Shown: piece by piece, positions 22,907-64,000 of the stretch
Layout: the number at the start of each line of letters is the position of its first letter
Numbering within the stretch: position 1 is the stretch's first letter
DNA from: a virus
DNA length: 64,000 nt
Direction: 5' to 3' (one strand)
Virus record (IMG/VR): IMGVR_UViG_3300033997_000310
Coordinates: 50,802 to 114,801 of that record
Translations under genes and position numbers: made by a program
Notes under the pieces: generated by a model
The model's input: the letters and a program-made list of their open reading frames with translations, nothing else
Database searches by the model: none
Told to the model about the DNA's origin: nothing

Positions 22907-23020
22907 GTTTGAGTTCCTGTTTGCAGATGGTGATGGGAAAGGTACATCATGGCGGGCAATGAGAAAAGTGCATAATTTGACCGGCCCCGGCAGGCGGGGG
23001 GATTTTTGCGTTCATCACTC

Positions 23021-24307
23021 AGTTGACGGACCCGCAGCGGCGGGTGGCGGCATGAACGAGAAGCCGCAGTTGCGCACCTCTTTTTCGTCCCCGCGCTGGC
23101 GGGGAAAGGGGCGTTGCCGAATCCGTCCTTTATCAATTTCCATACCCGCAACTGCGTGGTCGCTTGGTCGGCGGTCGTGACCGCTCCACCACCGAGTTTT
23201 CACCCCCGCGTGTGCGGGGAAGGCCACGGCTGTCTTGCGCGTCGGTCTACGGAGCCATTTTTCATCCCCGCGCGTGCGGAGCAGCATTGGCGCTGGATAT
23301 CATCGCGGACCTGAACCAATTTCCGTCCCCGCACGTGCGGGGGAGGCCTGGACGGCAGAGACCTACCAGCGCCTCGATTGTTTTCGTCCCCGCGCGTGCG
23401 GGGGATACCCCGCCACCTATCGCCGCAATGGCGTGTTCCTGTTTTCGTCCCCGCGCGTGCGGGGGAGGAATGAACATCCAATCAATGTGCAAGCCCTGCC
23501 ACTTTCCGCCCCCGCCCATGCAAGGCTTCCCATTTTATCAAGCAGTCGTCATTGGCCGCTCTTTCCACCCCCGCCATGCAGGGAACCGTCCGCCCGATGT
23601 TGGCTCCATCCATCTGGTTGTCGTCCCAACGAGTGCTGGGAAAGTGATTCTGCCACGGGTTGAAATGGTGGCGTCGATATTTTCACCCCCACTGGATTGC
23701 GGGGTAGGTGAGGCATCGTATCGGTTTCGTCAGACCCGGCCAAGTTTCCGTCCCCACCAGAATGCGGGGCAAGAGAGACGAAGGCTGGCACGTTCAAGGT
23801 GGTGTTCGTGTTTCCGTCCCCACCAGAATGCGGGGTAAGCAAAACGCTGTCCTTGCCGCTGGTACGTCGCCTCACGTTTCCGGCCCCGCCCAAATGCGGG
23901 GTATGTGAACCCTCATTTTTCCGATTTCGTACCCATCAAACGTTTTCGTCCCCGCCCAAATGCGGGGTAAGAGAGACACATGCACAAGGCTGGCCTGATA
24001 ACCGGTTGTTTCCGTCCCCACCTAAATGCGGGGTAAGAGAGACCGGCGCCCGGGTGAAGCGGATGGCCCGCCAGTTGTCGTCCCCACCTAAATGCGGGGT
24101 AAGAGAGACACATCGGGGGGTGAATCCGAACAGCGATCTGTTGTCGTCCCCACCTAAATGCGGGGTAAGAGAGACGCTCGTCATCGCTCAGAAGATCCCG
24201 CTCCAGTTGTCGTCCCCACCTAAATGCGGGGTAAGAGAGACTCCCGCCGACGGCCATCGGGCGCGGTATAGGTTGTCGTCCCCACCTAAATGCGGGGTAA
24301 GAGAGAC
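23021..24307 (-). CRISPR. Main CRISPR array, about 21 repeats of two classes
   Basis: Ten 36-nt repeats start at 23679, 23744, 23810, 23876, 23942, 24008, 24074, 24140, 24206 and 24272; the last four are identical (GTTGTCGTCCCCACCTAAATGCGGGGTAAGAGAGAC). About 11 shorter repeats start at 23021, 23081, 23136, 23196, 23258, 23319, 23380, 23441, 23502, 23561 and 23617 (e.g. GTTTTCGTCCCCGCGCGTGCGGGGGATAC). Confidence 0.95.
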
Positions 24308-24408
24308 TGATCCTAACACAACTCATTGCAATCAAATACGAATTACGCATTCGCATTTGAAAAAAACCATGATGTACTTGTTCAAGAACCGGTGAAAATG
24401 CGCGCTTT
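24308..24408 (-). promoter_or_regulatory. CRISPR leader
   Basis: AT-rich non-coding stretch abutting the most conserved repeats. Confidence 0.7.
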
Positions 24409-25470
24409 TTACGGCGCGCGGAAGTTCAGGCTGGTCACGTCGGTGGCATCCCAGGCCGCCAGCGCGGAAGCGATGATGCCGGTATCCAGCAACTCCAGGC
24501 CACCGAACGGTTCGATCTGGACGCTGCCGACATTTGCGAAGCCGTCACCTTCCCGCACCGTCACCGTCCAGGTGCCGCTGATCACCCCGCAGCCGTGATT
24601 CGCGTGCGCCCCGACAACCGGGTCCAGCGCCAACTCACGCAGCGCGGCCAAGAACAGGCCCAACTCCAGCTTGGTCACGTTCCGCAGAACCATGCGCTGG
24701 TTCAGCACCTTACCCTGCGGGATCACCTCGTAACCGCCCAACACCTGCTTGATGTTGACGCCGGCGGCCTCGACCTGCCCCTTCAGCGCGTCACGCTTGG
24801 CGGACAGTTCCGCGACTTCAGCAGCCGCATCGGCATTGCCCTTGGCGTTCTTCACGGCCTTGCGCAGGGCCGTCTCGATGTTCTTCAGTTCGGCCTTGGC
24901 CTTGCTGTTGCTGGCACCTTCCTCCGACATGGACAGCCACTTGTCGCGCTCGCCATCAGCCAGGGTATTGAGCGTGTCCGGGGTGCGTTCCATGTCATCG
25001 CTGCGGATGCCAGCGATCTTATCCGGTTCGGTCGGCTGTTCCGGCACGGCATGGCTCACCATCAGCTTGCCGGCGGTATGCGCGGCCATGCTGCCGAAAA
25101 GCGAGATCAGCGGGTTCGCGGCACGCAGATTGGCCGCCGCGATGATATCGGCCTTGCTGTCGCTGCCCTTGTCCTTGATGCCGCCGACCACGTTGAAATA
25201 GTGGTCATCCAGGGTGAAGACGGGAGCGCCATCACCCTGCACCGCGCGGCGAACGACGGTGAGCGCGTGCCGACGCAGCTTTCCGCGCAAGCCGGAGCCA
25301 GGGAAATAGACGGTCTCGGCATTGCCCACGGTCATGCGGGGCAGACGCGACGGCGGGTTCTTCTCGCGTTCGGCGCGCTTCTCGGTCTCGGTCTTCGGCG
25401 GGCAGGTGGCCAGAGGCGATTCGGTGGTGATGGTGCCGTTCAGGACGACGGTATAGGTCTGGGTGTTCAT
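24409..25470 (-). CDS. csf2: Type IV CRISPR backbone subunit Cas7
   Basis: Motifs GTITTESPL, FPGSGLRGKLRR, NPLISLFGS, GKLMVSH and VGAHANHGCG. Start moved to ATG 25470 because the longer ORF runs through repeats. Confidence 0.9.
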   Translation of the reverse strand: MNTQTYTVVLNGTITTESPLATCPPKTETEKRAEREKNPPSRLPRMTVGNAETVYFPGSGLRGKLRRHALTVVRRAVQGDGAPVFTLDDHYFNVVGGIKDKGSDSKADIIAAANLRAANPLISLFGSMAAHTAGKLMVSHAVPEQPTEPDKIAGIRSDDMERTPDTLNTLADGERDKWLSMSEEGASNSKAKAELKNIETALRKAVKNAKGNADAAAEVAELSAKRDALKGQVEAAGVNIKQVLGGYEVIPQGKVLNQRMVLRNVTKLELGLFLAALRELALDPVVGAHANHGCGVISGTWTVTVREGDGFANVGSVQIEPFGGLELLDTGIIASALAAWDATDVTSLNFRAP

Positions 25471-25520
25471 GTTCGTGTTCCATGTTGGGTAGGTGCGGGG
25501 TGGCCCGCGATCGAGTGTGT

Positions 25521-25858
25521 TTTGTCGGCCCCGCGTGGGCGGGGCATGAGCAGAAACCCACTCGACCTCTGGGCGGTGACTTTTCGCCCCCGCGTGTGCG
25601 GGGCGAGAGTCGGTCGGGATGTGGCCAATCACCTTCTCGTTATCGTACCCGCGCGGGTGCGGGTTTTGGTCTTGACTGTCACTGAACTTCGCAATCTCCA
25701 TCCTCTTGCCGTCCCCGTGCTCGTGCGGGGTGAGGGGTGCGTCGTTCGATTACTCGGATGACAACGAAGTCCTTACCGTCCCCGCGCACGTGCGAGGCAT
25801 CGGCTGTTGTGCTTTCGGATCAAGACCAGCCCTTTCCATCCCCACTCACGCCGGGAAC
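25521..25858 (-). CRISPR. Degenerate array between cas6 and csf2 (6 repeats)
   Basis: Handle plus CCCCGC..GCGGGG hairpin units start at 25521, 25580, 25639, 25705, 25772 and 25832 (periods 59, 59, 66, 67, 60). Confidence 0.75.
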
Positions 25859-62929: not shown

Positions 62930-63300
62930 TGGGGTGGGTGTAAAGGGGGTTTGATGAAAAAAATGTAACGCAATCAATGGTCTATGTGGGTTTGGGTGGT
63001 GATGGATAGGGGGGCGCTTTAGGGCGCCGTGGAAGGGGCTTTGTGGGGGCGCGTGGGGTGGTAGGGGAAATGGCTGGGCAGGGATGGGAGGCGCTGTGAG
63101 GGGCGTGAAACGGGCTCTTGGGATGGGTTGGTGTGGGGGTTAGGGGGGGGTGGGGAGCCTGGCGCGGGCAGGATGGGGGATTAGGTGGATGGGAAGGGGT
63201 GGAAGGGTGGATAGGGGGAAGCTGGGGGCTGTGAGGGGCTGATAGGGACGCTGTAGAGCTGGCAAGGGTGGGGATGGGGTAGGGTGCGGGTTTGGGGTGG
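62930..63300 (+). repeat. G-rich, C-poor low-complexity non-coding tract
   Basis: Dozens of G3-G7 runs on the + strand; no credible ORF. Confidence 0.7.
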
Positions 63301-63350
63301 GCTTAGGGTCGTGGTCCTGGGCATGGTGGGGCCATGTCCAGAATGCCGAA

Positions 63351-63375
63351 AGGCCCGGCTGTGGGGCCGGGCCTT
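63351..63375. terminator. Stem-loop downstream of the 63405-63641 gene
   Basis: AGGCCCGGC...GCCGGGCCT. Confidence 0.55.
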
Positions 63376-63404
63376 CGTGCGGGTGGGTAGGTGGGCGATG
63401 GGGC

Positions 63405-63641
63405 TTAGGCGTCGTAGTCGCCGCCCAGGGCGCGCAGGTCAGCGGTCAGGGCGTTGATGCGCTTTGTGACCAGACCCTTGTCATAGCCGGTCAGGCTGTC
63501 CCGCAGGCGATGGGCGCGGGTGAGTTGGGCCTTGATGCCGGCGATCTTATGGCCGGTCTCGCCCTTGGTCGCGGCGGCCTTGCGGCCAGCGGTCAGGATG
63601 AAGGCCGTGGCTTCGGTGGCGGTGGTGTTGATGGCGGTCAT
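63405..63641 (-). CDS. Hypothetical basic protein
   Basis: GGGAG RBS with the CCATCTGCAA motif upstream. Confidence 0.6.
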   Translation of the reverse strand: MTAINTTATEATAFILTAGRKAAATKGETGHKIAGIKAQLTRAHRLRDSLTGYDKGLVTKRINALTADLRALGGDYDA

Positions 63642-64000
63642 GGTGGTCTCCCTTGCAGATGGTCGGGGGCGTGATTGCCGTCCCGATGTGTGTAAGGTAG
63701 CCGCAACCACCGGTTGTGTCAATGGGAAAATATCATTGAATCAATGGGCTATGTGCATTTTTTGATGGGCAGGCGGTGGGCCGTATAGCTGCCATATATA
63801 GAGGTCAGGCTATGGGGGTGTGGCCGGATAGGGGGCGCGTAGACCGCGCGTGGGGTGGGGTCGGGTATGGGGTGGGTCCGGTGCCGGGGCGTGGTGGGCG
63901 ATGGTATGGGCGCACGTTCACGGCATGTTCGAATATCATTGCCGATTATGAGTCGATGGCGCATATTCAAAGGGCGCCGCCGGGGAAACCCGGCGGCGCC

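Follow-up and report, generated by a model that had tools for sequence, protein, structure and literature searches.

An uncultured phage genome of 114.8 kb (about 115 kb) possesses a 10-mer, CCAUCUGCAA, that could be an mRNA-level start-associated site common to 10 exact and 3 degenerate leftward non-structural initiation regions. Of the readings considered, the most probable is that an antisense RNA docks on this motif in trans. It is tentatively proposed that a hammerhead at the 3' end of the early operon releases one RNA, which shuts off translation of about 13 dispersed genes, including that of the DinG helicase of the phage's type IV-A CRISPR-Cas system. Phages with start-linked motifs scattered over the genome were first described in 2011, and a function has been settled only for DNA-level stoperators. 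This phage presents an unusually clean case, with an invariant 10-mer that has its complement just once, in an RNA that is predicted to be bounded by a ribozyme and a terminator. The clean pair of motif and anti-motif makes the role of such motifs a simple question of compensatory mutation.

Motif copies and their position at gene starts

The window, which is the whole stretch of 64 kb that was analysed (G000:50802-114801 of the genome), contains nine exact copies of CCATCTGCAA against 0.25 expected. Shuffled sequences contained 0.25 copies on average and 2 at most, in agreement with the chance expectation of well below one given in an earlier, sequence-only reading of this DNA. That reading had listed the same nine copies. 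Eight of them read TTGCAGATGG on the plus strand, at the positions of the exact copies listed below, and one is reversed. Two more exact copies, at genome positions 2217 and 6857, lie outside the window in the orientation of the sense copies, each ahead of a gene start, which brings the genome to 11. There are also three degenerate start-linked copies, AAATCTGCAA (window 60430), TCCTCTGCAA (window 57495), and CCATTTGCAA (genome 15211). The first had already been noticed as an 8/10 copy and is real; the other two were added here. The start-linked sense copies (10 exact and 3 degenerate, 13 in all) are on leftward mRNAs without exception, and the roughly 13 genes that bear them are all non-structural. 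No exact or start-linked copies were found in the rightward structural and late genes (about 60 kb). The copies in the window, with the genes that follow them and nearby promoters, are these:

63722-63694, sigma-70-like promoter; its -10 box is about 31 nt upstream of the next motif copy
63653-63662, minus strand, motif copy; precedes the first early gene (63405-63641, 78 aa)
62389-62398, minus strand, motif copy; precedes a beta-clamp-like gene (61046-62374)
60969-60978, minus strand, motif copy; its ATG opens merely a 9-codon mini-ORF (60956-60927), with a stop that overlaps the TTG from which a 142-aa gene (60502-60930) starts
60430-60439, minus strand, degenerate copy; precedes a DUF6908 gene (60005-60418)
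59767-59776, minus strand, motif copy; precedes a 59-aa ORF (59573-59752)
58273-58282, minus strand, motif copy; precedes a 246-aa gene (57521-58261)
57495-57504, minus strand, degenerate copy; precedes a 230-aa gene (56791-57483)
54629-54638, minus strand, motif copy; precedes a 155-aa gene (54149-54616)
41862-41834, sigma-70-like promoter; its -10 box ends 7 nt before the next motif copy
41817-41826, minus strand, motif copy; precedes a 596-aa gene (40015-41805)
22921-22930, minus strand, motif copy, 8 nt past a TACCTT -10-like box; precedes a DinG-like helicase gene (20693-22906) of a type IV-A CRISPR-Cas locus

The gene labels given previously are retained for the DinG-like helicase and the beta-clamp-like protein. 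The label "SbcC-like" for the 596-aa gene is not, as the sole match of this gene is a weak one, to a PHROG family without a known function.

The Shine-Dalgarno sequence (SD) begins 0-3 nt past the motif and the start codon lies 11-15 nt past it in 13 of the 13 sense copies. The claimed spacing, about 11-15 nt before an ATG and abutting the SD, thus holds for every sense copy. Five copies sit past sigma-70-like -10 boxes at a spacing that varies from 7 to 31 nt, and the remaining copies are in intergenic gaps. The motif had been suggested to be an mRNA-level signal, and the fixed SD spacing together with the variable -10 distance supports its link to translation starts. The copies at 22921 and 41817 begin at about +1 of their own transcripts, and for this reason the idea that an upstream hairpin is a universal part of the element was rejected.

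Relatives of the phage were sought as well, and none turned up in any of the collections searched. Megablast found no relatives among phages, and DNA contigs from sequencing runs showed the same phage only. Viral contigs retrieved with methylase, methylase alignment, clamp, and TerL queries had at best 39-61% amino-acid identity and none carried the motif. Among genome and metagenome contigs the best match was 42% on a 1.5-kb contig in which the motif is absent. Two DNA-pattern scans returned chance single matches only. A 98-kb contig with 17:1 one-mismatch matches was a false lead, explained as an artefact of the coding strand in a phage with 36% GC. The palindrome ATCTGCA-A-TGCAGAT at genome position 36527 was set aside since it sits in the coding sequence of an HNH gene. 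Among the most repeated 10-mers listed for the genome, the words other than the motif are GC-rich and of low complexity, and the most repeated 11- and 12-mers include CRISPR-repeat words. A link to Cas6 and the CRISPR repeats was rejected: the arrays at 23021-24307 have a CCCCGC...GGGG hairpin and a ACGAAAAC-type handle, unlike the motif, and none of their spacers contains it.

Hammerhead ribozymes and the reversed copy

Judged by their cores, the hairpins ahead of three motif copies are type I hammerhead ribozymes, a feature new to this analysis. A hammerhead core was defined by CUGANGA, GAAA, a UH cleavage site, and the A15.1-U16.1 and 10.1-11.1 pairs. A full core and a GUC site are present in five of five elements, and the core scan of 40 shuffled genomes gave zero. 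The elements are as follows:

60440-60510, minus strand, type I hammerhead with full core (CUGACGA, GAAA, GUC); the stop codon of the upstream gene is inside the core; predicted cleavage after 60460, 20 nt ahead of a motif copy; no Rfam match at E<=1
59502-59573, minus strand, candidate type II hammerhead flanked by the 59-aa ORF and a radical SAM gene; no motif after it; 22.3 bits against a gathering score of 37; predicted cleavage after 59538
58283-58359, minus strand, type I hammerhead; the UGA stop of a 72-aa ORF is within the core; predicted cleavage after 58298, 15 nt ahead of the motif; RF00163 match at 58314-58360 with 30.5 bits against a gathering score of 34
54639-54718, minus strand, type I hammerhead; predicted cleavage after 54658, 19 nt ahead of the motif; RF00163 match at 54652-54719 with 22.8 bits against a gathering score of 34
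52666-52742, minus strand, type II hammerhead immediately downstream of the final ORF (52743-52946) in the leftward operon; predicted cleavage after 52707; RF02276 match with 41.8 bits, above the gathering score of 37 (E 7e-6); no gene downstream, unlike the other four

These hammerheads presumably cleave. Neither hammerhead ribozymes nor a DNA-level stoperator alternative with the same geometry had been mentioned in the sequence-only reading.

The last of these elements is next to the reversed copy, and three further features are found there:

52648-52657, minus strand, anti-motif UUGCAGAUGG (the reversed copy); UCCUG (anti-SD) just before it on the leftward RNA
52647-52623, GC-rich terminator stem directly 3' of the anti-motif on the leftward RNA
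52613-52706, minus strand, predicted 94-nt RNA that would begin at the ribozyme cleavage site and end in the U-rich tail past the terminator stem

The reversed copy is the sole one and sits in a convergent intergenic gap. It had been described as following a hairpin, which is correct on the plus strand; this hairpin is what terminates the leftward operon, and the copy has no start codon after it. Read on the leftward RNA, the copy matches the motif as its exact complement, with the anti-SD UCCU adjoining, and it is placed between the type II hammerhead (5') and the terminator (3') on the same strand as its targets. Because the hammerhead is directly 5' and the terminator directly 3' of the anti-motif, this strand is probably transcribed and the ends of the RNA can be predicted. 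Several forms of mRNA-level signal had been suggested, and the exact complement on a same-strand RNA favours the sRNA option specifically. As in a c4-like antisense RNA, there is complementarity to the target starts on a predicted same-strand RNA, here with a 10-nt perfect match and the anti-SD; the type II hammerhead above the Rfam gathering score fixes the strand.

In the predicted 94-nt RNA, UCCUGUU is unpaired with a probability of at least 0.92. The anti-motif core GCAGA is predicted to be paired with UCUGC of the 3' tail (unpaired probability 0.01-0.19), and opening this pairing would cost about 6.5 kcal/mol. The U-tail, UUCUGCCUUU, is weak. Predicted duplexes with the 13 targets range from -18.5 to -31 kcal/mol, against -16 +/- 3 kcal/mol for 154 other starts, a separation that is partly by construction. 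The copy at genome position 15211 has a single substitution, C to U, and its pairing is kept as a G-U wobble.

The preferred reading, put forward with reserve, is a ribozyme-released antisense RNA that, by pairing with the motif and the SD, would act as a translational repressor of all the genes in the set. The type II hammerhead closes the leftward early operon and would cleave itself after 52707. This cleavage and the terminator at 52647-52623 would release the 94-nt RNA, which would display UCCUG-UUGCAGAUGG between hairpin and terminator. Pairing would begin at the free UCCUGUU and extend over the 10-mer and the adjoining SD of each target. The duplex would block ribosome binding and could possibly trigger decay. 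Synthesis of the RNA would have to wait until the polymerase arrives at the distal end of the operon, so that its targets would be turned off late and together. What the sequence shows is the motif and its geometry, the complementary copy, the strand, and the cores of the ribozymes; cleavage, the 94-nt RNA itself, its pairing in vivo, and repression as its effect are inferred.

Alternative readings and significance

Further observations, besides the paired core GCAGA and the weak U-tail, count against the antisense model. sRNA seeds usually need fewer than ten invariant bases, and the 10 invariant bases of the motif exceed this. In addition, the stoperators of phage L5, which are experimentally resolved DNA sites, share the SD-abutting geometry. 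The proven L5 repressor sites, inspected in this analysis, abut the SD and the ATG as the motif does here, even in long gaps. The 10-mer would then be a stoperator-like asymmetric DNA site at which a phage regulator blocks initiation at promoters and elongation within operons, depending on orientation, in the way of gp71 at its 13-bp sites in L5. This is the main rival reading, though rather unlikely. All 11 exact copies are co-oriented with local transcription if the reversed copy is assigned to the rightward operon ending at 52614, and the positions of the copies, either shortly past -10 boxes or intergenic, are suitable for such sites. However, the promoter distance is unconstrained, the rightward structural and late genes have no copies whereas L5 has sites in both arms, and the sole copy oriented with the plus strand precedes no gene. 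No homologue of the L5 repressor gp71 was found by tblastn (best E 2.9), although any other DNA-binding protein could serve. If the stoperator model is true, the stoperator silencing strategy reaches beyond actinobacteriophages.

The motif could also be an RNA operator or enhancer that is read by a protein or the ribosome, with the reversed copy being fortuitous. The T4 RegA protein, a phage translational repressor, is a model for this. Candidate readers include a phage translational repressor or activator, a host factor, and pairing with 16S rRNA. The motif is in the 5' UTR, tightly coupled to the SD, and close to mRNA 5' ends that are made by promoters or, putatively, by hammerheads; its bases are 22-76% unpaired on average in local folds. 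Against this, a scan of 30 proteins from the early region and its neighbourhood revealed no RNA-binding domain, and no complement of at least 6 nt was found in the first 600 nt or so of a Rhizobiales 16S rRNA, which may not be that of the host. An exact reversed intergenic copy would be expected by chance just about 0.03 times (0.25 per window multiplied by an intergenic fraction of about 14%). This reading is considered improbable.

Very little weight can be given to the 10-mer being a microhomology at the borders of exchangeable cassettes, as the sequence-only reading had also suggested, with no direct role in expression, as modelled by the promoter stem-loop cassettes of T4-type phages. The motif does precede accessory genes that are unrelated to one another and have a start module each, and the mini-ORF at 60956 looks vestigial among these modules. 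However, conservation ends sharply at both edges of the 10-mer, 10 bp is short for recombination, and neither the SD spacing nor the orientation is accounted for. The core of a phage-specific promoter, with a sigma factor or RNA polymerase of the phage to recognise it, would agree with a dispersed, oriented motif upstream of one gene class and can nevertheless be dismissed: the SD is within 0-3 nt and would be lost from an RNA that starts 5-8 nt downstream; several copies are already within sigma-70-like transcripts or downstream of hammerheads; and the sequence has no sigma-54-type GG-N10-GC spacing.

If the antisense RNA model is true, a phage-encoded RNA controls a multi-gene regulon, and phage hammerheads gain a role in making a regulator, beyond cutting mRNAs apart. 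Expression of a phage-borne CRISPR-Cas component would be coupled to an early-gene timer. The RNA would be a counterpart to the protein translational repressors of phage early genes, and the start-associated sequences of mycobacteriophages, for which there is no explanation so far, could work in a similar way.

Comparison with known phage systems

The closest anatomy is that of the start-associated sequences (SAS/ESAS) of Cluster K mycobacteriophages (Pope et al., 2011, PMC3203893), the function of which was still unknown in 2024 (PMC11373665). The likeness to them pointed out previously is apt. Both motifs are short and asymmetric, with 11-19 copies, and both are found in a single orientation immediately upstream of the start codons of non-structural genes only, often behind a promoter or inverted repeat. 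Cluster K1 genomes also contain exactly one reversed copy, away from gene starts. The SAS is a different sequence of 13 bp, and its consensus GGGATAGGAGCCC, with up to 2 mismatches allowed, is unrelated to the 10-mer CCATCTGCAA. The SD is part of the SAS, and 3-9 bp separate its end from the start codon, whereas the motif here excludes the SD and ends 11-15 nt away. Host and lineage differ, some copies here follow hammerheads, and the reversed copy here is in a putative ribozyme-bounded RNA. In Anaya (Cluster K1), the transcribed strand has a conserved hairpin with the reversed SAS in its apical loop. In Amgine and SirPhilip (Cluster K) this anti-SAS loop is replaced. The Cluster K parallel lends weak support and no covariation support to the antisense model, because the Amgine loop is not anti-SAS despite an unchanged SAS.

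The stoperators of Cluster A mycobacteriophages (PMC9283540) likewise lack symmetry, lie at promoters or between genes, and follow the direction of transcription. Unlike the motif here, those of L5 are 13 bp of a different sequence at more than 20 sites, they span both genome arms including structural operons, and they are bound by a known monomeric repressor, gp71. Their action at the DNA level is proven, whereas for the motif here it is hypothetical.

The hammerheads resemble the clusters of such ribozymes found among the genes of prophages (Perreault et al., 2011, PMC3088659; Rfam RF02276 and RF00163). Types I and II, complete cores, a location between genes of a phage polycistronic transcript, and a pseudoknot-type contact are present in both. 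The terminal type II copy here differs in that it leads to the antisense element and a terminator with no downstream gene. Hammerheads of this kind account for the hairpins alone and not for the 10-mer.

The c4 RNA, which RNase P processes, has a single mRNA target, icd-ant. This RNA belongs to the immI operon of phages P1 and P7 (Citron and Schuster, 1990, as cited in PMC8198154). The RNA predicted here would similarly be a small phage RNA cut from an operon that carries its own targets, and its short complementary stretches would pair with the ribosome-binding region and block expression. Unlike c4, it would be released by a hammerhead and would have 13 targets with one common 10-nt site.

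A start-associated 10-mer in the leftward genes

There are eleven exact copies of the 10-mer TTGCAGATGG in the whole 114,801-bp genome. Nine are in the window, which forms the right-hand 64 kb of the virus record, each at exactly the position where the sequence-only reading had placed it, and two lie beyond it, at genome 2217 and 6857. These two extend the window's leftward gene block across the ends of the record, where a terminal repeat of 127 bp looks like a circular-assembly overlap. The earlier expectation of well below one chance copy also held, with dinucleotide-preserving shuffles giving a mean of 0.25 copies and a maximum of 2. 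Besides the motif, the most repeated 10-mers listed for the genome are GC-rich low-complexity words, and words of the CRISPR repeat rank among its top 11- and 12-mers.

Ten of the exact copies read CCATCTGCAA on the leftward strand. The close abutment to the Shine-Dalgarno (SD) sequence and the ATG some 11-15 nt further on, both proposed from the window alone, were found again: the SD follows after 0-3 nt and the ATG after 11-15 nt. Three degenerate copies share this geometry.

Degenerate copies of the motif
Genome 15211: CCATTTGCAA
Window 57495: TCCTCTGCAA
Window 60430: AAATCTGCAA

No copies of the motif were found within coding regions. The start-linked copies are all at leftward non-structural genes with unrelated functions, including those for a DinG-like helicase, a clamp-like protein, a DUF6908 protein, and several orphan genes. 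Sequence conservation ends abruptly on both sides of the 10-mer. Five copies are located 7-31 nt 3' of sigma-70-like -10 boxes, so the spacing between motif and promoter is variable, whereas that between motif and SD is not. The motif is real and highly non-random, and it is of the start-associated kind (SAS or stoperator) in an unrelated, GC-rich, CRISPR-carrying phage. No relatives of the phage with the motif were found in any collection searched. A look through sequencing runs gave none of RNA, and other DNA sequencing runs contained the same phage only.

The ATG that follows the copy at 60969 opens a 9-codon mini-ORF (window 60927-60956, - strand), which is preceded by motif and SD. Its stop codon overlaps the TTG start of a 142-aa gene (UUGA), and this arrangement suggests translational coupling via a leader peptide.

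The motif-carrying promoters (window 22944-22931 and 41840-41827; genome 2240 and 6895) have TTTTCC(C)AT boxes in common, and near the predicted start site they also share TCCCATCA. Outside the window, at genome 22696-22760 (- strand), a possible 8/10 copy, CCACCTGCAC, precedes a 70-aa gene. It comes right after a tRNA-like 3' end with T-arm, acceptor stem, and CCA.

Predicted hammerhead ribozymes of the leftward operon

Alignment of the upstream regions also showed that GCCGAAAC and GTCGCGG recur, and these are parts of hammerhead cores. The apparent hairpins before three of the motif copies are predicted hammerhead ribozymes. In all, five such elements, three of type I and two of type II, are distributed along the early operon that runs leftward, all on the - strand.

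Predicted hammerhead ribozymes (window coordinates)
54639-54718, - strand: type I, fills the gap before the motif copy at 54629
58283-58359, - strand: type I, fills the gap before the motif copy at 58273
60440-60510, - strand: type I, fills the gap before the motif copy at 60430
59502-59573, - strand: type II
52666-52742, - strand: type II

A structural scan of the genome returned exactly these five, compared to none in 40 shuffles. The hammerhead at 52666-52742 was matched in Rfam with 41.8 bits (E 7e-6), above the gathering score of 37. Three others were matched below the gathering score: 59502-59573 with 22.3 bits against 37, and 58314-58360 and 54652-54719 with 30.5 and 22.8 bits, respectively, against 34. 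No Rfam match was reported for 60440-60510.

The order of elements is the same in all three type I copies: CUGAYGA, stem II, GAAA, stem III, and GUC. Each also has the stop codon UGA of the upstream ORF inside the CUGAYGA core, and a ribosome terminating at this codon would unfold stem I. The predicted cuts, after 54658, 58298, and 60460, are 15-20 nt 5' of the motif; for the type II hammerhead at 59502-59573, a cut is predicted after 59538. In the type I copies, loop II is able to pair with the bases that immediately follow stem I on its 3' side. Each copy has its own pair of partners, GUGG/CCAC (54639-54700), UGGC/GCCA (58283-58345), and UGACC/GGUCA (60440-60495), all on the - strand. The differing partners suggest a covarying pseudoknot, and the contact is of the pseudoknot type reported by Perreault et al. 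(PMC3088659). Clusters of hammerheads between phage genes are already known (PMC3088659). Two small ORFs are present on the - strand in apparently long intergenic gaps, one of 72 aa (58351-58569), which terminates within a hammerhead core, and one of about 54 aa (about 59833-59997).

The reversed copy and a predicted 94-nt RNA

The single copy in the opposite orientation, at window 52648, sits in a 128-nt convergent gap. This gap is flanked by the last leftward ORF (52743-52946) and by the last rightward gene, which encodes a basic protein and ends at 52614. No start codon follows the reversed copy on the + strand. In the leftward RNA its sequence is UUGCAGAUGG, exactly complementary to every other copy, and UCCUG (anti-SD) stands immediately before this anti-motif. 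The anti-motif begins 9 nt past the 3' end of the type II hammerhead that scores above the Rfam threshold (52666-52742), the only one of the five without a downstream gene. Because the hammerhead fixes the strand, the transcribed strand at the reversed copy is the leftward one. Directly 3' of the anti-motif comes a terminator stem rich in GC, and then a U-rich tail.

Cleavage after 52707, together with termination, would yield an RNA of 94 nt. What is new here is that the motif's only reversed copy lies inside a predicted ribozyme-bounded antisense RNA. The RNA is predicted to fold into two hairpins and an extended terminator helix, leaving UCCUGUU free (unpaired probability 0.92 or higher). 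The terminator helix sequesters GCAGA, with a predicted opening cost of 6.5 kcal/mol. Duplexes predicted with 13 start regions range from -18.5 to -31 kcal/mol versus -16 +/- 3 for 154 others, a separation that is partly by construction. The copy at genome 15211 differs by one substitution only, which preserves pairing as a G-U wobble.

The 94-nt RNA would possibly be produced only once transcription has run through the whole early leftward operon. In the cell, it could then pair with 13 mRNAs at their motif and SD and block their translation, which would amount to a delayed common shut-off. The sequence itself establishes the motif with its geometry, the complementarity, the ribozyme cores, and the strand, while cleavage, the RNA species, its pairing in the cell, and the sign of the effect are inferred. 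As a whole, this antisense model is put forward tentatively, with a probability somewhat short of even.

Outside the window, a 750-nt stretch of the leftward early region contains two copies (genome 2688 and 3434, - strand) of the 13-mer TTGATGCAGATGG, which includes a 9/10 anti-motif. One copy is inside a called gene. The other is intergenic by a crude gene call, and we think that it is coding too.

Comparison with mycobacteriophage repressor sites and start-associated sequences

The motif could also be a stoperator-like site that acts at the DNA level. Cluster A mycobacteriophages have repressors that recognize asymmetric 13-bp sites, more than 20 in number, which are oriented with transcription and lie in intergenic gaps as well as at promoters (PMC9283540). 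When the sequence of phage L5 was checked directly, its sites likewise adjoined the SD and start codon that come next, also where the gap is long. A position beside the SD is therefore compatible with a site read in the DNA. L5 stoperators with proven repressor binding (for example, at 38001, 40293, 45462, and 48099 of L399, the L5 sequence) are immediately 5' of the SD and ATG of the following gene, even where the gap measures 76-400 nt. If the motif is such a site, its reversed copy has the right orientation for the rightward operon, at whose end it lies. However, no sites occur in the structural and late genes, which make up roughly 60 kb, the sole + strand site has no gene after it, and no homologue of the L5 repressor gp71 was found in the genome. 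A DNA-level site is the main alternative, with a lower probability than the antisense model. A site for an RNA-binding protein or a ribosomal enhancer is given a small probability, and the cassette-exchange and promoter readings a smaller one still.

In anatomy, the motif comes closest to the start-associated sequences (SAS) of Cluster K mycobacteriophages, whose role was still unknown in 2024. The likeness extends to copy number, occurrence at non-structural genes only, single orientation, and the presence of one reversed copy in each K1 genome (PMC3203893). In Mycobacterium phage Anaya, the reversed SAS copy occupies the second apical loop of a two-hairpin intergenic element (L184:34760-34930, record 59,760-59,930); a TAGACT box and a strong terminator precede this element. 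The same loop holds the sole reversed SAS copy in most K1 phages, and its sequence there is anti-SD/anti-SAS. The parallel to the motif/anti-motif pair is only suggestive because in Amgine the SAS is unchanged, yet the hairpin loop is no longer complementary. The two-hairpin element, which belongs to no Rfam family, is conserved with some compensatory changes across 133 records of Cluster K phages and is a candidate small RNA.
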